DNA of 64,000 bases from Dictyostelium discoideum (lineage: Eukaryota): contig CM000150.2 in the NCBI GenBank assembly GCA_000004695.1, positions 4,256,001-4,320,000 of the forward strand, given 5' to 3'. The notes below the pieces were generated by a model. That model saw nothing but the letters and a program-made list of their open reading frames with translations. It was not told where the DNA came from and searched no databases. This document shows, piece by piece, positions 4,144 through 60,256 of this stretch; within the stretch, counting starts at the first letter, position 1; the number at the start of each line of letters is the position of its first letter. A program made the position numbers and the translations under genes.

Positions 4144-4932
4144 TTAATTAAATTTTAATGTATCAATTTCATTATTTGGATTAATAATTACTAAATTTGA
4201 ATTATTATTTGTTGAGATGATTGAAATTGGTGGTTTAGAACTTGAATATTTTTCATTATTAACTTTAATTGATTTAATTGATTGTCCTTTTTCAATATCC
4301 CAAATATTTAAATAAAGATGGGATATTTCATTATTATTATTATTATTTTCAACAATTGTTGTATGTCTATTCCAATGAATTAATGTATTTTTAATATTTG
4401 TAATGAAACTACCATCTTGGATTTTAGTTGTTTCTTTTTCAAAATCAATAAACCAAGTTTTACCAATGGTTTTCTCGAAATTGTGAATGATGATATCCGA
4501 TTTTGTGAATATTAATAAATATGGTTCTTGGATTTTCTTTGGAGATACGAGATCGTCCCTATTAATGGTCCAATTTTCAATTATTTCATCACCACTTTTA
4601 CTTTCATTATTAATTAATCTAACACTAATTTGAATTTTATTTTGAAAAATTGAAGTTACAAATAATTTCTTAAAATCACAACTTGTTTGAATTTGTAAAA
4701 ATATTTCACCAGCAATTGGTCTGAATATACAAATAAATTCACCTTGACCTGAAACAAAATTAAAGCAATCAACTTTAATAAATTCAATTCTTTTATTTGG
4801 ATCTGCAATCGTTGGTAATTGAATTCTACTCCATTCATTAATTAATTCATTACTAATTGGATATGATCTACCATAAATATAATCATTTGATTTATAAATT
4901 TTTTCTTTTTTTTTTTTTAAAATGAATTAGTA

Positions 4933-15882: not shown

Positions 15883-16478
15883 TTAATGAGAATGATTTTC
15901 TTCATGACCATGGTCATTATGATCACCATGTTCATGTTCACATTCGCACTCTTCGTTTTGTTTTGGTTTTTGTTTTATAGCTCTATGTTCGTCTTCACTT
16001 TCATCACTACTTTCATCATAAGGTTTCTTTTTATGAAAGATACAACATTCTTATTTAGAAAATAAAATAAAAAAATATTAGTCTTTGACTTATAGTTTTG
16101 TTTTTATTTTTTATTATTATTTATTATTATTATTTATTTATTATTTAAATGACATCAACAATAAAGATGAACACATAAAAAAAAAAATATATATATATAT
16201 ATATATAATAGGACCTTTATTCCTATTATAACATTTAAATAAATAAACATACTTTTTGATTTTTTTTTTGATAAATTTTCGTTATCTACAATCCCTTCAT
16301 TCCATTGAACTCTCTTTTTATCTTTTTTTGGTGGTTTTCCAAGAACAAGTCTTAATGTTGGTGGAGAATTTGGACCACTATTAGTACTGCCACTACTTTC
16401 AGTTTGAAGAAGAGTTGTTGTTGTCGTTGTTGTTGTAGTTGGTGAACTTGCTAAAGTTGGTGATCTTGTTGTGTGCAT
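15883..16478 (-). CDS. Protein phosphatase 1 regulatory subunit 11 (inhibitor-3 / Ypi1)-like protein in two exons, 16478..16253 and 16049..15883 on the minus strand.
   Basis: Exon 1 carries the RVxF-type motif KKRVQWNEGIVDNENLSKKKSK. Exon 2 carries the signature CCIFHKKKPYDESSDESEDE followed by a His-rich tail, ECECEHEHGDHNDHGHEENHSH*. The minus-strand donor is GTATGT at 16252 (phase 1) and the acceptor is at 16051-16050. Confidence 0.7.
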
Positions 16479-35439: not shown

Positions 35440-36995
35440 TTAAAATAATACTCTCACTTACTAACTAATTACTTTTTTTTATTATTATTATTTTTAGTTA
35501 GTAAAAATTTCCCATCAATTAATTTATATAAAATTTTAGAATTATTGAAAATATCAATTGAAAAACAAAGTTTTAACATTTATCAAATTAAAAAATTAAT
35601 TAAAATTATTATAACATTATCATTGGATTCAAAATATTCACCAAAGATACCAATGAATCAAAATAATGTTACACCATCAGATGGAAAGAATGGATCACCA
35701 TCTTTTTTAACATCAATTCAAACTTTATCAAAAGATCAAATTACAAGTGAAACTAAATTAATGAATTGTATAACATTAATGAAATCAATTGTAACTCTTT
35801 TATTAAATCAATATTTTGATGAAAATAATCATTTAAAAGAATTTCAATTAAAAAAGAATAATAATAGCAGCAGCAGCAGCAAGAAGAATTTAGATAACGA
35901 TATTGATAATGATTCTGATATTGATATTGATATGGATAGGGATGATGGTATAGATTATAATTTTCAATTTAATTTAATTGAAACTATGGTAGAATTATTT
36001 GAAGAGATAATTTCAGTTGTTGGTGATAAATTTAAATTTAGCTTATATACAAAGATTGCAAAATTTTTACCAACAAATACAAAATATAGAATTCATGAAC
36101 GTTTCTCTTTATTTTGTATTTTTAAAATATTAGAACATAGTAAATCTTTAAAAAAGAAAGAAAAATCGAAAAAAGATAAAAAGAAATCAAAGAAATCAAA
36201 GAAATCAAAGAAATTATCACCTGAAAATGAAAATGAAAATGAAAATGAAAATGAAAATGAAAATGAAAATGATAGTGATATTGAACAAAAAGAAAAAAAA
36301 AAAGAAAAAGAAAAAGAAAAAGAAAAAGAAAAAGAAAAAGAAAAAGAAAAAGAAATGGAGAAAGGTTTTGATATGATATCAGTTGAAATATCTGCAAAAG
36401 ATATACCATCAGTGGTATCACCAACAACAACTACAACAACATCAACAACATCATCATTATCTCCATCAGACTCACCATTATTAACAACTACAACGTCAAC
36501 TTCTACAACGACATCAACAAATGAAATTATTATTGAATTTTTAAAATCAAATGATATTTTAAGCTCATTAATTAAAATGATTGAACCATATGTTTTAAGA
36601 ATTAAACAAAATGATTGTGTAATTTTAATGGTAAATCTTGTTCAATTAGTCAGTATTGCTATTGATAGTGTTTCTGAAATTAGAAAACATGCTTCAGAGA
36701 TTGGTTCTGTCATTAGAAATTGGAATGGAAATATTAGAGAACCTGAAAATATTGATTTTAATAAATCAAGAGTAATCTATTTTTTTTTTTTTTTTTTTTT
36801 TTTTTAATAGATTAAAGATACATTTTTTAATCAGCCAATTAAAAAATTAATTTACTAACTTTTTTTTTTTTTTATTTTTTTTTTTAATAGATTAAAGATA
36901 CATTAGTTTTAATTCAAAGCAAAATATCTGGTTTAGTTATAAAACCAACTGACACAATTGAATGTTATTTCGATAGAATTAAGAAGATTAATTAA
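33930..36995 (+). CDS. Hypothetical Ser-rich protein of about 890 aa in five exons: 33930..34736, 34834..35074, 35154..35393, 35498..36771 and 36891..36995.
   Basis: All junctions are in phase. Donors are GTAAGA at 34737, GTATGT at 35075 (phase 1), GTAAGT at 35394 (phase 1) and GTAATC at 36772. Acceptors are at 34832-34833, 35152-35153, 35496-35497 and 36889-36890. TACTAAC branch-point heptamers lie 25-40 nt upstream of three of the acceptors. The coding sequence includes poly-Ser encoded by (AGT)n, a KEKEKEKE/ENENEN block and an acidic patch. I recognised no family. Confidence 0.55.
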
Positions 36996-37862: not shown

Positions 37863-39737
37863 ATGGATGAAGAAGATTCTTACTCTCAATCTCAAGAATT
37901 AGAAGTTTTAAAATCAATCTATGGTGATGATTTTTTCTCTCAAATGGAATATTATGAAAATGATATTCATAACCATAGTAATGAAAATTATAGTAGTGGT
38001 TGTAGTGGAAGTGAAGATGAAGATTTAGAAGATAAACATTCTCAAAACAAAACTTCAACTACAACTACAACCACTACCACCACAACAACAACTACAACAA
38101 CAACAACAACTACTACTACAACTTCATCATATAATGATGATGATAATAATAATAACTATAATGATTATGAAGATGATGATGATGATGATAGTTTTGATGA
38201 AAAATATAAATATAACGTAAGTATTTTAAATAATAATGATAATAATAATAATATAATAATAATAATAATTATAAAATTAAATAATAATAATTATTATTTT
38301 TATTAACATTTTAAAAAAAAATAGATAAAAATTAAAATTGATTTACCAAATGAATATAAAATTAAAATTAAAGATGAAGAATTAGAATATCCAATAGTAT
38401 GTTTACCATCAATTAATCTTGGATTTATTTATCCAAAAGGATATCCAAGTAAAAGAGCACCAATCATTACATTATCATCATGTTGGTTAACATTGAAACA
38501 AATGAAATCATTATTGGATGAATTAATAAATAATCAATGGGAGTGTGGAGAATTGGTAATTTTTAAATATGTAGATTGGTTAAAAACAAATTTGGTCGAT
38601 TATTTAGGATTAAGAGAATCATTGACATTAGATGGTGAACCAATTGATTTCGAGAGTGAATTATGGGATCAAGGTGTATCATGGGATCATGAAGCTGATT
38701 GGCAATCGATGCAAAATGCAATTCCAATGTTAAGATCATACAATTCACATGAAGGTAAAAGAATATTTGATCAACAGTATCATTGTTGTTTAATTTGTGA
38801 TCATGAAGGTTGTGGTCAAACTGATTTCACTCAAATATCAACATGTGCTCATTTCACTTGTAATGAATGTATAGCTAGTATTATCAATGTAAATTTAAGT
38901 AGTGGTCAATTGGCATCAATTAAATGTCCAACACTTGGTTGTAAACAGTTGTTGGATCTTTCAATCATTAGAAAGTATGTTTCATCCGATCAAGATTACA
39001 ATAGATATCAAGATTATTTAAAACAACAAAGAGGTTTAGTAAAATGTTTAAGATGTCCTGATGGTTGGAGTTTTGTTGATAACTTAACAAGATCAACCTT
39101 TTGTTCAACTTGTTATTACTCATTTTGTTTATTTTGTCGTAATCAATTTCATCCTGGTGTAAATTGTGATGATAACAATGCAAAAAGAGGTGACAATAAT
39201 AATAGAATCGATAGAAATAATCCAACTGGTCTTGGTTTAATTAGAATTTGTCCAACTTGTGGTTGTTTAATTACCAAATCTGAAGGTTGTAATAAAATGA
39301 CTTGTTCAAATTGCTCAACTCGTTTTTGTTGGCTTTGTTTGAAAGCAAACATTGACTATAACCATTTCGGTTTACGTTGTGAACTCTTTCAATTCACCCC
39401 TTCAAGAATTAACCATGCCAATAGAATCGTTAACAGTGGTGTTGTCGATGCTACAACCGTTTGTAGATGTAAACAACTTCTTTATCGTCATTCAGGTTCA
39501 AATACAGTGGTTTGTCGTAATTGTGATGCTACCTATTGCTTCCTTTGTAAAACTAAAATTAAAGGTACAAGACATTTTATGAATAGTGATACTTGTACTC
39601 AAAATGGAAATCCTAAAACTTTTAAACCTGATAAATCTTATGTATTTTATAATTTATCAAATAATGAAACAATTACACCAGAAATTAAATCTAAAAAAGA
39701 TTATTATATTTTTGAAGGTTTAATTATAAAAAGATGA
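37863..39737 (+). CDS. RNF14/ARA54-like E3 ubiquitin ligase with an RWD domain and a RING1-IBR-RING2 (RBR) module, in two exons, 37863..38216 and 38325..39737.
   Basis: The N-terminus has the RWD signature (ELEVLKSIYGDDF ... LPSINLGFIYPKGYPSKRAPIITLSS). The C-terminus has three Cys-rich zinc modules: CCLICDHEG..CAHFTCNEC.., then CP..GC.., then C..C..C..CNKMTCSNCSTRFCWLC. The donor is GTAAGT at 38217, phase 0, and the acceptor is at 38323-38324. Exon 1 contains poly-Thr and acidic low-complexity sequence. Confidence 0.8.
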
Positions 39738-42274: not shown

Positions 42275-42313
42275 GACGATTCTAATCATATGATTTTTAA
42301 AATCGATAGTTTG

Positions 42314-42387
42314 TATTCAGAGCGGGAATCGAACCCACGACCTAATCCGTGTTAAGGATTCGTGATAACCGACTACACCATCCGAAC
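42314..42387 (-). tRNA. tRNA-Val with anticodon AAC, 74 nt.
   Basis: The minus-strand sequence is GTTCGGATGGTGTAGTCGGTTATCACGAATCCTTAACACGGATTAGGTCGTGGGTTCGATTCCCGCTCTGAATA. The cloverleaf has a 7-bp acceptor stem with two G-U pairs, a D arm GTGT/TCAC, an anticodon stem AATCC/GGATT, a loop TTAACAC (anticodon AAC), a T arm GTGGG-TTCGATT-CCCGC and discriminator A. Confidence 0.85.
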
Positions 42388-42884
42388 AAATCGTTGAAAT
42401 TCAAAAAAAATAGCTTTTCCAATATTTTAATATTTTTTCCCCATAAATAATAATTCTAATAATAATAAAATAAAAAAAATAAATATAATTCAAAAAAAAA
42501 ACCATATTTTAATATTGCTTTCTTACAAAGAAATTTTGAATCATAAAATTATTTATATTTAAAATAATTATAAATTAAAATTAATTTTAATCAACCCACT
42601 TTTATTAATATAATTTATAATTAAAATAAAAAATTATCATACAAAAAACTCTTAAATTTAATATTTTAAGTGTGATACTAAGGTGACATAAAATAATGAA
42701 AGGTTAAATAATTTAATTAATTTTAAATTAATTTTTCAAATCAAAATAATCTCAATTTATATTGATATTATGATAATATTTTCTGAAAACATTATTAACA
42801 TGATTTTCAAAAAAAAAATTTTTAATCTATTTTTAAAAAGATATATAAATTTCCAAAAAAAATTTTTTTTTAAAACAATTCATG

Positions 42885-42919
<35 letters not shown>

Positions 42920-43010
42920 TTTCAAAATAAAAAATAGTTTGGTTATTTATTTTATTTTCTTAAAATTAATTAATAAAAAAACAAAAATAATAAAATATAA
43001 TTTAAGTAAA

Positions 43011-43651
43011 ATGTCAGCCTTTATATATAATAACAGTAATAATAATAATTCGATGCGTCTTTGTGTTATGGGTGATGGTGGTGTTGGTAAAACATCGATT
43101 ACAATCCAATTTATTTCAAACCATTTTGTAAATTGTTATGATCCAACAATTGAAGATTTATATAGAAAACAATGCCTAATTGATGATCAAGTTTATATGT
43201 TAGATATACTTGATACAGCCGGTCAAGATGAATTAAATGCAATTAGAAACCATTGGATAAAATCATGTGAAGGTTTCATATTAGTTTATTCGGTTACATC
43301 AAGATCATCATTTGACCAAATTCAATCATTTTTAGATCAAATTAAATTTTTAAAAAGTGAAAAAGTTCCAATTATAATGATTGCCAATAAATCAGATTTA
43401 GATGATGAAAGACAAGTAACATATCAAGAAGGTGAAAATTTTGCCAATCGATTTGGTATGTCATTCATGGAAGTTTCTGCTAAATATAAATTAAACATTG
43501 ATGAAGTTTTTAATCAAATAGCCCAACATTGTGTGAAAAGAAGATGTGATCACATATATATTAATAAATCAATAAGGAATAAGAATTCAATATTTAAAAA
43601 ATTTAATCAAAAATTAAATAATACATTTCATTCTATTTGTAAAATGATATA

Positions 43652-43652
<1 letters not shown>
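43011..43652 (+). CDS. Ras-family small GTPase paralog, a single exon of 213 aa and the most divergent member of the cluster.
   Basis: Sequence is [101 protein letters not shown]...[12 protein letters not shown]...CKMI. The ORF track starts upstream at a TTG/poly-F artefact, and the true ATG is at 43011. Confidence 0.8.
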
Positions 43653-43700
<48 letters not shown>

Positions 43701-44315
43701 GTAAATAAAGTTTAATGTTCTTTCAATTTGTTATTGATAGAATTTGTATATATCTTAAAAAATATTATTTCTTTTAAAAAAAAAAAATTAAAATAAAAAC
43801 CATCAAATATTTTTTTTTTTTATAAATTATAAGGAGGGGATATCCTAGATATAAAAACCAAAAATAAAAAAAAAGAGGTGACAATCTCCGCTTAAAATTA
43901 CTTTTCACCACTTTAATTTTTATATCTGGCTAACCTTAATAAATTTTAATTTTTCTTTATAATATAAACCAAAATAAAAAACAAAAAAATAAAAAGATAT
44001 ATTAAAAATAAGATGTTACTTAGTTTCAGAAATATTTTTTTAAAAATTGTTTTCTATTTTTTTATTTGAAATTTAATATTATAATTTATTTTAGCGAAAT
44101 CTATTTAAAGATTTTTTTTTTTTTTTTTTTTTTCAAAAAAAAAAATTCAGAGAAATTTTTTTTTTATTTTTTTTATTTTCTTTGACAAAAAAAAAATATA
44201 TAAAAAGAAAAAAATGATTTTTCCTATCATTCAATTTAAAAATAAACAAATAATTAATATATATAATTTGTAAATAAATATAAATAAATAAATAAATAAA
44301 TATAAAAAATTAAAA

Positions 44316-44960
44316 ATGGCATCATATAAAAATAATAATTTAGTACGTCTTTGTATTATGGGTGATGGTGGTGTCGGTAAAACAGCAGTAACAATTCAAT
44401 TTATTTCAAATCATTTTGTTTATTATTATGATCCAACAATTGAAGATTCATATCGTAAACAATGTGTAATTGATGATCAAGTTTATATGTTAGATATATT
44501 AGATACAGCAGGTCAAGATGAATTAACCGCTATGAGAGATCAATGGATTAGATCATGTGAAGGTTTCGTTTTAGTTTATTCAATTACATCAAGATCGTCA
44601 TTTGATCAAGTTCAATTCTTTAGAGAACAAATTATCCGTGTATTAGATAGAGATGATGTACCAATTATGATGATTGGTAATAAATCAGATTTAGATGATG
44701 AAAGACAAGTAACCTATCAAGAAGGTAAAGATTTAGCACGTTGTTTAGGTATGTCATTCATGGAAGTCTCCGCTAAAAGTAGAGCAAATATTGAAGAAGT
44801 TTTCAATGAAACTGTTCGTTCTGTTAAAAGAAGAGAAGAATCATTATTAAAAAAAGATAAATCAAAAGATGGAAAAGATATTAAAAAGAAAAATTCAATA
44901 ATTAAAAAATTAAATCAAAAAGTAAATAATACTAAAACCTCAATTTGTAAAATGATGTAA
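44316..44960 (+). CDS. Ras-family small GTPase paralog, a single exon of 214 aa.
   Basis: Sequence is [154 protein letters not shown]...CKMM. Confidence 0.9.
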
Positions 44961-45126
44961 ATAACATTTGAAAAAAAAAAAAAAAAATCTGTAAAATATG
45001 TATTCTGTAAATAATAAAATGTACAATAAAAATTAAATCTTTCGATGTGGAATTGGAAGAACGATTTATTTAAAAATAGTTTTTTGTTTTTTTTTTTTTT
45101 GAAATTCCTCATAATCTTTAATATTT

Positions 45127-45329
45127 TTGGTTTAGTTTATGAGGGCATAAAGAGTTTATGTATGGGGTAATATACCACTATTTAGTGGGATCAGGTGAAC
45201 AATCCTAGTTTCATGTATTCGAATTCGATTGCCTTGTTGTTGAATTTTTGTAATTTTAGCTGGACAATAAATTTGATTGTTCAAAAAAGAGTGGTGTAAT
45301 CCATACATAAACTCCTTAAGCCCTCATAA
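45127..45329. mobile_element. A 203-bp element bounded by 29-bp terminal inverted repeats (27/29 match), MITE-like or hairpin-like.
   Basis: The left arm ttatgagggcataaagagtttatgtatgg pairs with the reverse complement of the right arm ccatacataaactccttaagccctcataa. Pairing continues inward, with ggtaatataccact on the left against agtggtgtaat on the right. The element lies about 60 bp beyond the ex-B box of tRNA-Val. Confidence 0.5.
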
Positions 45330-45345
45330 TATATTTACCAAAAGA

Positions 45346-45356
45346 GAATCGAACCT
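45346..45356 (-). promoter_or_regulatory. External B box (GGTTCGATTCTC) about 36 bp downstream of the second tRNA-Val.
   Basis: The plus strand reads GAGAATCGAACC. It sits at the same relative position as the element next to the first copy. Confidence 0.55.
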
Positions 45357-45391
45357 ACGGTCTTACAATCATTAACTTTAAAAGTTAGTTG

Positions 45392-45465
45392 TATTCAGAG
45401 CGGGAATCGAACCCACGACCTAATCCGTGTTAAGGATTCGTGATAACCGACTACACCATCCGAAC
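45392..45465 (-). tRNA. tRNA-Val with anticodon AAC, a second copy.
   Basis: The 74 nt are identical to the copy at 42314-42387 and the immediate flanks are similar. Confidence 0.85.
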
Positions 45466-45610
45466 TAATCGATGAAATAATAAATAAATAGCTCAGTGGT
45501 ATTTTTATAAATGAAAAAAATTATCTCATGAAGTAACCAAAAATTGCGTTATTCCATTCAAAAAAAATAAAAGAAAAAAAGATCATTCAATTTTAAGTCA
45601 AAAAACTAGT

Positions 45611-45613
<3 letters not shown>

Positions 45614-45665
<52 letters not shown>

Positions 45666-46160
45666 CCTTTACTGTTTAATATAAATTGAAGGGACACTAA
45701 AATAACTGTCTGACAATAACTACATGAATGGAAAACAATAATAGATAGGTATCTATTAGTATTGAAGGGTCAGAATTATTGATTGTTTATAATTTGGTAT
45801 TGAAATACCAATGAATGATTGTGATATTGATAATGTTTGAATTGGTTTTCAGTTGATGATGCTTTTGAATCGATGATTGCCCATTTAAGAACTACCATAG
45901 TTCGAATTATCATCAACTTGAATTTTAAAGAAGTTTTGCCTGTATCTCCAATTTGTTTTAATGGGCAGTATATTTAATACAAATAGCGAAATTAATGATT
46001 GAAGTTGCTTGATCGAACCATTCTAAAGTTACATCATTTTGATTGGTTAAACCTCTCATTGGGTCTGTCAATGTTTTCAATGGTGTTGGAGTTGGTCGGT
46101 TTTGAATAATTTGATTCTGTAGGATTATCATTAATCAGATTTTTATTATTCATTTCTTTA
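45614..46160 (-). other. Decayed coding-like segment ending in a 52-nt A tract on the minus strand, possibly the 3' remnant of a tRNA-targeted non-LTR retroelement (TRE-like) or a pseudogene.
   Basis: Positions 45614-45665 are T52 on the plus strand. The adjacent 500 bp have distinctly higher GC than intergenic DNA but only short, frame-broken minus-strand ORFs (MNNKNLINDNPTESNYSKPTNSNTIENIDRPNERFNQSK*, then NQNDVTLEWFDQATSIINFAICIKYTAH* in another frame). The A tract points toward the tRNA about 150 bp away. Confidence 0.3.
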
Positions 46161-58268: not shown

Positions 58269-58364
<96 letters not shown>

Positions 58365-58966
58365 TTCTTGTTGTTCTTGCTGCTGCGATATATTCTGTTC
58401 TTGATATCCTTTATGTAAATCTTTAAATGAGGCTGTCATATATCTTGTATCTTGTTGTTGTTGTTGAAGTTGTTGCATTATTGGTGATTTTATGAATGAT
58501 GTTTTTGGTCTTTGATTTGCATTTGGTGATGGTGGGGAATGAACGTATGTATTATGCTGTTGTTGTTGTTGTTGTTGATCTTGATGATCTTGATTGTATT
58601 GTTGTGGTTGGTACTGTGAATTTCTAGGTTTATTATTATTACTATTATTGTTGTTGTTGCTATAGTATTCATTTACATTTATTACTGAGCTTGAAGTACT
58701 TTCTAAACTATCTCTATAATTTGTATGATCAAGTTGTATAACTGTTGGTGGACTATATGTATCTATTACTCTAGGGTCAAGTGCTTTTTTTTTTTTTTAA
58801 AAAGTAATCGAAAAAGAATAATAGTTAGAATTGGTTTATGAATAATTAAAAAAATGATTAAATACTTACGATTTGGATCATAGTATTCTTCATATTCTTG
58901 GTCATAGATGAATGGATCATAAGGTGTTTGGGACCTTTTGATACAGCAACAACAAATATTACCCAT
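57684..58966 (-). CDS. Hypothetical Q/N-rich protein with an N-terminal MGNICCCC acylation motif, in two exons, 58966..58870 and 58783..57684.
   Basis: Exon 1 reads MGNICCCCIKRSQTPYDPFIYDQEYEEYYDPN, with a GTAAGT donor at 58869, phase 1. Exon 2 is a long open frame with poly-Q encoded by (CAA)n and (CAGCAA)n, plus poly-N. Confidence 0.6.
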
Positions 58967-59742: not shown

Positions 59743-60256
59743 AAAATAAAAATTAAACAATTATTAAAAATTTACAAAAATACACGATTTGTAAAGGTGG
59801 GGTATCGCATAAAAGAAATTAGGAAATAAACATTAAAATACAATAAAGAAATAATAATTCTTGTTTTCAAATAATACTATTGAAAGAGTGATCAAAAAAA
59901 AAAAAAAAAAAAATAAAAAAATAAAAAAAAAATAAATAAAAAAAAATAAAAATAAAAAAATTAAATTAAATTAAAAAAAAAAAAAAAGAATTTTAATTTT
60001 TATTTTATTTTATTTTTATTTTTATTTTATTTTTTTATTTTTTATTTTTTAAAAAATTAAGAAATGGTGGCAAAATGTACTCAGCAATGCCAGTCTATTT
60101 TTGGGTTTAAAACGTTAGTCTTCTTAAAATAATTTTATCATTAATAATATTTTAATAATCACCAGACATAATTAAACAGTTTTTTTTTATTTTTTTTTGG
60201 AATTCCAAAAAAATAATTGTTTTTTTTTTTTTTTTTATTTTCAATTTTTTAATTTT

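Follow-up and report, generated by a model that had tools for sequence, protein, structure and literature searches.

The intergenic spacer between rasZ and a tRNA-Val gene on chromosome 1 of Dictyostelium discoideum AX4 contains a long hairpin, which raises the question of whether this structure is an inserted mobile element, a gene for a structured RNA, or the product of a rearrangement of resident DNA. An earlier note on this sequence had listed three corresponding options (i.e., a MITE-like non-autonomous DNA transposon, a structured ncRNA gene, and a recombination hairpin). We analyzed the locus within a 64-kb stretch of DNA (referred to here as the window; 19.6% GC), to which all coordinates refer unless another sequence is named. 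The gene order is a first tRNA-Val(AAC) gene (42313 to 42387, minus strand), rasU, rasZ, the hairpin, an ex-B box (45346 to 45359, minus strand), and a second tRNA-Val(AAC) gene (45391 to 45465, minus strand), the first tRNA gene thus lying beyond rasU as seen from the hairpin. The open reading frame upstream of the hairpin (44316 to 44960, plus strand) encodes a protein that is identical to RasZ of D. discoideum AX4 across all 214 residues. The second tRNA gene was predicted by ARAGORN and matched the Rfam tRNA family with 57.9 bits. Its ex-B box, which reads GGTTCGATTC on the tRNA strand, is a direct repeat of the internal B box at 45404 to 45417 (13 of 14 positions identical), is conserved in all strains compared, and forms the right boundary of the variable spacer. 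The hairpin is separated from the 3' end of the tRNA-Val gene (45391) by 62 bp and from the ex-B box by 17 bp (core arms) or 3 bp (extended arms); the distance of about 60 bp that had been given for the ex-B box is actually the distance to the tRNA gene. Judged from the sequence, Pol III read-through from tRNA-Val would cross two T4 runs ahead of the hairpin.

The hairpin is a quasi-palindrome of 218 nt (45125 to 45342) that consists of a 5' arm, a loop, and a 3' arm. Its core arms (TTATGAGGGCATAAAGAGTTTATGTATGG at 45137 to 45165 and its counterpart at 45301 to 45329) are 29 nt long each and are complementary at 27 of 29 positions. The near-perfect 29-bp inverted repeats reported by the earlier note are thus real, but they are not terminal at the left end, because the core arm starts at 45137, 10 nt inside position 45127, from which the element had been taken to start. 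Pairing extends inward (45137 to 45183 against 45286 to 45329, a 47-nt alignment at 83%), in agreement with the stem of about 45 bp that had been ascribed to internal complementarity. Pairing also extends outward, where TTTTGGT (45125 to 45131) pairs with ACCAAAA (45336 to 45342) in both the DNA and the RNA folds. Within the structure, TGAACAATC (45196 to 45204) and its exact complement GATTGTTCA (45275 to 45283) form a 9-bp inverted repeat, the halves of which pair in the DNA fold. RNA folding and a search for target-site duplications had been proposed as checks along with the original observation, and the former gave strong folds on both strands: -75.4 kcal/mol on the plus strand (z of -7.85 versus shuffled sequences) and -61.8 kcal/mol on the minus strand (z of -7.02). 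The DNA fold had a z value of -6.63 versus shuffles. When positions 45125 to 45342 were folded, the plus strand formed 80 pairs (-77.2 kcal/mol) and the minus strand formed 68 pairs (-63.6 kcal/mol); the plus-strand RNA thus has 12 more pairs in total, and it includes 12 G-U pairs. The GC content of the quasi-palindrome is 31.7%, versus 16.5 to 17% in the flanking intergenic DNA. The only ORFs crossing the hairpin encode 41 and 50 aa, and none exceeds 52 aa, which bears out the statement that it has no meaningful coding capacity.

In an arm search allowing up to three mismatches, only the two own sites were recovered from the 64 kb, and two matches were obtained in 0 of 100 shuffled sequences. 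A second copy of the hairpin was found neither in the window nor in ~75 kb of related Dictyostelium loci, its inverted-repeat pattern had no match in prokaryote and viral collections, and the arm sequences did not occur in a full-text literature search. A metagenome scan with a gapped arm pattern returned six matches on contigs of 36 to 60% GC; these showed no extended similarity and were dismissed as chance. The quasi-palindrome (45125 to 45342) and the orthologous spacers of two other strains were compared with Rfam 15, and no family was matched at E values up to 1. The regional scan returned tRNA-Val and, inside the rasZ coding sequence (44657 to 44730, plus strand), a SNORD113-like match (22 bits; E value of 0.37) that is below the gathering score and almost certainly due to chance.

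The AX4 spacer was compared with three other alleles in which rasZ is followed by tRNA-Val, namely, L004 (D. cf. discoideum) and L005 and L006 (labelled D. discoideum or D. cf. discoideum). Their spacers can be described by three blocks: block A (about 45134 to 45215 in AX4), which includes the core 5' arm; block B (45216 to 45283), which corresponds to the loop; and block C (~150 to 230 nt), which is not in AX4. The L004 allele contains blocks A, B, and C; the L005 and L006 alleles contain blocks B and C without block A; and the AX4 allele contains blocks A and B together with the 3' arm (45284 to 45342). Block A, which is ancestral, aligns with positions 4846 to 4925 of L004, and its placement with respect to rasZ and the tRNA gene is the same in both alleles. 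Block B was recovered by BLAST (45218 to 45283) at 88% in L005 and 83% in L006 and represents ancestral spacer common to all four alignable alleles of the D. discoideum complex. Neither the 3' arm nor an empty site was present in any of L004, L005, and L006. The AX4 3' arm matched the reverse complement of the AX4 5' arm with a score of 56, which was reached by 0 of 500 shuffles; when the same arm was compared with block C of L004, L005, or L006, the match was not significant (score reached by 103 to 479 of 500 shuffles). No significant trace of a degenerate 3' arm was found in L004, in which the reverse complement of block A is not similar to block C either. At the level of sequence, these alignments demonstrate that the 5' arm and the loop are orthologous to those of the other strains, that the 3' arm is an inverted copy specific to AX4, and that block C is missing in AX4 only.

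Several details of the other alleles bear on the state of the spacer before the 3' arm appeared. TGAACAAT occurs in block A of L004, and GATTGTTC(A) occurs in L004, L005, and L006; because the relatives have its halves, the 9-bp inverted repeat TGAACAATC/GATTGTTCA predates the event. The 3' arm contains AAAGAGTGG, the reverse complement of CCACTCTTT, which is the sequence of block A in L004, whereas the AX4 5' arm reads CCACTATTT. The match of the 3' arm to the L004-type sequence indicates that it was copied from an older block A. The ancestral spacers of L004 and L005 fold in an ordinary manner (z of -2.26 and 0.02, respectively, versus -7.85 in AX4), and no conserved structure was detected in them. 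Block A of L004 (4846 to 4925) alone forms a local hairpin (AGAGTTGTTTAT...GTGAACAATTCT, enclosing CCACCACT-CTTT-AGTGGTG), and nested short palindromes were thus present in this region before the AX4 event.

AX4, L004, and the L005/L006 pair are about equidistant from one another (~5% substitutions), and L015, a more distant D. cf. discoideum allele, differs by ~10%. The polarity of the change rests on parsimony and on the missing 3'-arm remnants rather than on a resolved tree. L015 contains a pair of rasZ-like genes, and its spacer is barely alignable. The syntenic locus of D. citrinum (L014) has both tRNA-Val genes and rasU but lacks rasZ, blocks A to C, and any similarity to the hairpin, which indicates that the spacer is young and turns over rapidly. 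The loci L001 (D. citrinum), L002 (D. dimigraforme), L003 (D. firmibasis), and L013 were rejected as orthologs, as they actually belong to the paralogous rasW/X/Y cluster; L001 to L003 do not contain the hairpin, but being paralogous, they are uninformative in this respect.

We consider it likely that the hairpin is not an inserted element but a quasi-palindrome that formed in place in one lineage, when a reversed block A replaced block C. A mobile element predicts that the whole unit is either present or absent; here, only the 3' arm is new, and an event in place is therefore the simplest explanation. In the proposed course of events, the original spacer from rasZ to the ex-B box would have consisted of block A, block B, and block C. 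A nascent strand whose last bases were GATTGTTCA, where block B ends, would have paired with the nearby TGAACAATC in block A, copied block A backwards, and rejoined the original template just before the ex-B box, with the reversed block A (together with a few bases upstream of it) taking the place of block C in the lineage to AX4. Small deletions and substitutions may have accumulated later or during copying, and in the simplest history, the L005/L006 lineage would have lost block A through a deletion of its own. The locus shows what a rearrangement of this type should leave behind, i.e., one arm that is resident and orthologous, another arm that is an inverted copy confined to the derived lineage, and a preexisting short inverted repeat at the junction, where TGAACAATC is the proposed seed of the template switch and GATTGTTCA supplies the last ancestral bases before the AX4-specific arm. 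A gap of 11 nt obscures where exactly the switch occurred. The 3' arm starts after AAAAAA, 0 to 11 nt off the position expected from a perfect fold-back at the 9-bp seed, which predicts 11 nt more, and this shortfall together with the A-run at the start of the arm makes the exact switch point uncertain. Divergence between the arms amounts to ~7% in the core and, overall, to ~10% substitutions plus gaps of 3 nt and 11 nt. Since the arms are not identical, either some time has passed since the event or the copy was inexact, and the junction can be placed only approximately; since their divergence is of the same order as the distance between the lineages, the event is not very recent. Both the template-switch mechanism and the selective neutrality of the product are what we infer for this locus.

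Quasi-palindromes and inverted duplications formed by template switching or fold-back have reportedly been described in bacteria, yeast, and human tumors by Ripley, Lovett, Rattray, and Tanaka. Like these, the AX4 hairpin has a short (9-bp) inverted repeat at its junction, one arm that inverts adjacent sequence, a loss of the earlier resident sequence, and no transposase-type hallmarks. Unlike them, it has imperfect arms and a junction that ~11 nt and an A-run have shifted or made indistinct; the AX4 event is also old and diverged, and its mechanism is deduced from the end product alone. The kind of rearrangement seen here is known, and the hairpin is a case of it that had not been described. 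Of the three options listed in the earlier note, the recombination hairpin therefore came closest, although a local inverted duplication is the best account of how the structure came about; the observation itself was confirmed in substance but only in part in its details, and its interpretation was partly supported.

Other origins of the hairpin have to be weighed against this one. A MITE-like non-autonomous DNA transposon (e.g., one related to thug-S or DDT-S) that had landed downstream of the tRNA gene would be expected to look much like this noncoding unit of ~200 bp, the 29-nt near-perfect inverted repeats of which have the quality of MITE termini (27/29 over 29 nt). D. discoideum does have such elements, namely, thug-S, a small inverted-repeat DNA element carrying hairpins that yield miRNAs (PMC4894637; PMC6161686). 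The AX4 hairpin resembles thug-S in being small and noncoding, in occurring in the same organism, and in having long inverted repeats and a fold like that of a Dicer substrate. However, thug-S is multicopy, whereas the hairpin has no second copy in the DNA searched (i.e., the 64-kb window and ~75 kb of related loci, or ~140 kb of Dictyostelium DNA in total, a scope that makes this point weakly informative), has no target-site duplication, and is built from resident spacer; moreover, no published small RNA, including the one derived from thug-S (Table 2 of PMC4894637), matches it at 6 mismatches. TA is present at both inner ends (TTA/TGAGGG...CCCTCA/TAA), but it is simply part of the palindrome. 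Likewise, the AT-only 6-mer ATATTT occurs on both sides (45121 to 45126 and 45331 to 45336), but it is offset from the inverted repeat by 10 nt on the left and by 1 nt on the right, and such a repeat is trivial in AT-rich DNA. In a scan of all boundary combinations, no target-site duplication was found directly flanking the arms; besides the asymmetric ATATTT, only a pair of CCTCATAAT was present (45107 to 45115, plus strand, and 45322 to 45330), the left copy of which is also the inverted partner of TTATGAGG at 45137. This pair was rejected as a target-site duplication because its left copy does not abut the 5' arm but lies 21 nt outside it, and its right copy coincides in part with the end of the 3' arm. 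In L004, CCTCATAAT is likewise present, with a small inverted copy of its own behind it, and the direct repeat thus reflects a small palindrome that was already present in L004. Finally, the strains do not provide a filled and an empty site: L004 shares block A and the loop, L005 and L006 share the loop alone, and the 3' arm is found in AX4 only. A transposon origin, as the earlier note had put forward, accordingly did not hold up, and we regard it as very unlikely. A second kind of insertion is suggested by the position of the hairpin, as TRE3 and Skipper-2 preferentially land immediately behind a tRNA gene and its ex-B box. The hairpin lies right behind both, as do TRE3, TRE5, DGLT-A, and Skipper-2, and its distance falls within the ~100 bp of a tRNA gene or ex-B box that characterizes tRNA-targeted retroelements. 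It could thus be a decayed fragment of such an element (TRE3, Skipper-2, or a solo LTR) that contains an inverted repeat by chance. This reading would fit with the GC content of blocks A to C, which is double that of the spacer around them, with the unrelated stretch of ~450 bp and higher GC content that D. citrinum has at the equivalent site, and with the reverse transcriptase ORF near the neighboring tRNA site in L015. The hairpin nevertheless differs from these retroelements in that no ORF remnant, poly(A) tail, or LTR-like repeat was found in it, nor any similarity to the L015 retroelement or to the other sequences compared, and its inverted repeat was formed where it now lies; nor would a retroelement account for the 3' arm specific to AX4. 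As an account of the hairpin, we consider a retroelement fragment unlikely. A decayed tRNA-targeted retroelement is nonetheless a reasonable guess for the source of blocks A to C, and such a source would not conflict with a fold-back origin of the 3' arm. An assembly or cloning artifact, i.e., a chimeric inverted clone in the AX4 reference, deserves mention in that palindromic chimeras occur in shotgun libraries. It is scarcely credible here, since an artifact would be a perfect copy, whereas the arms have diverged (2 mismatches in the core and indels further in) and the 3' arm keeps an older state than the 5' arm. The composition of the hairpin counts against our own best explanation: intergenic DNA of D. 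discoideum is 86.2% AT and thus ~14% GC (PMC11014262), and 32% GC is unexpected for old neutral DNA.

A function of the hairpin as an RNA gene was considered alongside these origins. According to this reading, the hairpin would be a young precursor of miRNAs or endogenous siRNAs that is transcribed from the plus strand and diced by DrnB. Its size is plausible, given that known pri-miRNA hairpins of D. discoideum measure 101 to 162 nt, and its GC content is elevated. The predicted plus-strand fold (-0.354 kcal/mol/nt) passes the criterion applied to miRNA hairpins of D. discoideum (below -0.2 kcal/mol/nt; PMC6161686), but all listed hairpins of D. discoideum fold more strongly per nucleotide (-0.43 to -1.05). 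The G-U pairs and the surplus of pairs on the plus strand would likewise favor an RNA acting from that strand; the extra G-U pairs, however, are in the G/T-rich loop and could be an effect of composition. A T-run ending in G (45080 to 45101, plus strand), located 24 nt upstream of the palindrome, resembles the T-rich/G motif described for putative start sites of D. discoideum pri-miRNAs (PMC6161686). This motif has low specificity, as 24 such sites per strand are present in the 64 kb (~1 per 2.7 kb per strand), and strains that lack the hairpin have also kept the one at 45080 to 45101. Neither the miRNAs nor the candidates listed by Liao 2018, Meier 2016, and Edelbroek 2024 include the hairpin, and its arm sequences do not occur in the supplements of these three studies; in the files of Edelbroek 2024, the control miR-1177 was found five times, and zero candidates were located on chromosome 1 (NC_007087). 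It is also absent from the other D. discoideum isolates, which argues against a conserved function. In its intergenic position, order of size, upstream T-run/G, and folding energy per nucleotide below -0.2, the hairpin is similar to DrnB-dependent miRNA genes such as mir-1176 and mir-1177. Unlike genes of this type, it has a weaker fold per nucleotide and is missing from published small-RNA lists, and unlike mir-1177, which is conserved across group 4 (PMC11014262), it is not conserved among isolates. The structured ncRNA gene that had been suggested is thus left with its foldability, as the hairpin belongs to no Rfam family, is absent from published miRNA lists, and is not conserved among isolates; such a functional gene appears improbable to us. 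We regard the hairpin made in place as, by best estimate, a neutral structural variant.

As it stands, the hairpin is one more structural variant in a fast-evolving spacer adjacent to a tRNA gene and matters little in itself. The analysis removes a false MITE candidate and provides a worked example of how a 9-bp inverted repeat can give rise to a long hairpin in place, in a genome that is extremely rich in AT, with the ancestral state retained in sister isolates. Dictyostelid miRNAs are mostly lineage-specific, and products of fold-back are therefore plausible raw material for new hairpin-RNA genes. Young MIRNA genes of plants are said to be born by inverted duplication, a view attributed to Allen et al. 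in 2004. The AX4 hairpin is similar to such genes in that it derives from a local inverted duplication and has the long, near-perfect stem typical of young loci. It is different in that the duplicated sequence is noncoding spacer with no obvious target gene and in that the case is known here from sequence. There is a slim chance that the hairpin is such a newborn hairpin-RNA gene, made from plain spacer by a fold-back duplication in the AX4/NC4 lineage, which would be transcribed from the T-run/G at 45101 or by read-through from rasZ and diced by DrnB to low-abundance small RNAs. If this were true, the sister isolates would keep the pre-hairpin state, and the locus would represent a dated, population-level case of miRNA turnover in dictyostelids.

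Additional differences among strains were observed around the two tRNA-Val genes. In L015 (D. cf. discoideum, GCA_054859235), positions 1 to 2219 contain a 993-aa ORF with an RVT_1 domain, which immediately precedes rasU. This position is taken by the first tRNA-Val gene in the other strains, and ARAGORN predicted only one tRNA-Val gene in the L015 locus; the ORF looks like an insertion of a tRNA-targeted retroelement. In D. citrinum, the GC-richer stretch of ~450 bp (L014:8700-9100) is located directly downstream of the second tRNA-Val gene, where D. discoideum has blocks A to C, and the two together suggest repeated independent insertions at this tRNA-proximal site. The coding part of the locus is also variable. 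At the syntenic D. citrinum locus (L014:5432-9226), rasU is followed by a gene with a CfaA_B_C domain and then by tRNA-Val, with rasZ missing, and D. cf. discoideum L015:2750-6898 contains two tandem rasZ-like genes. The best RasZ matches in D. citrinum, D. firmibasis, and D. dimigraforme (92 to 95%) are located in the rasW/X/Y cluster. From these sequence comparisons, rasZ between the two tRNA-Val(AAC) genes (42313 to 45465) is apparently a recent arrival.

Some minor features of the window were also recorded. TAGCTCAGTGGTA (45489 to 45501, plus strand), a perfect 13-mer resembling a tRNA A box, lies on the strand opposite to tRNA-Val, 24 bp upstream of that gene. It occurs once in the window, was matched in 0 of 100 shuffles, and is absent from all other loci, which have TTGCTCTACGCCG, TTGCTCATCCCCG, or TAGTAATTTAAGA at the homologous position; it is probably a chance occurrence or a tiny tRNA remnant. 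Further upstream of the same tRNA gene, a near-unbroken run of ~60 T (45607 to 45666) gave many spurious BLAST and inverted-repeat matches to poly-A tracts. The inverted-repeat listing of the whole window was swamped by poly-A/poly-T pairs, and a GC filter was applied, after which six 12-mer inverted seeds no more than 800 nt apart were retained, the hairpin among them. Apart from two short self-overlapping palindromes (15904 to 15917 and 60195 to 60210), the remaining exact inverted 12- to 14-mers in the window that are spaced by 800 nt or less and are not composed of A and T only number three pairs (37993 to 38006 with 38064 to 38077, 36016 to 36028 with 36416 to 36428, and 58314 to 58326 with 58943 to 58955), which have the look of GTT/GGT-type repeats.
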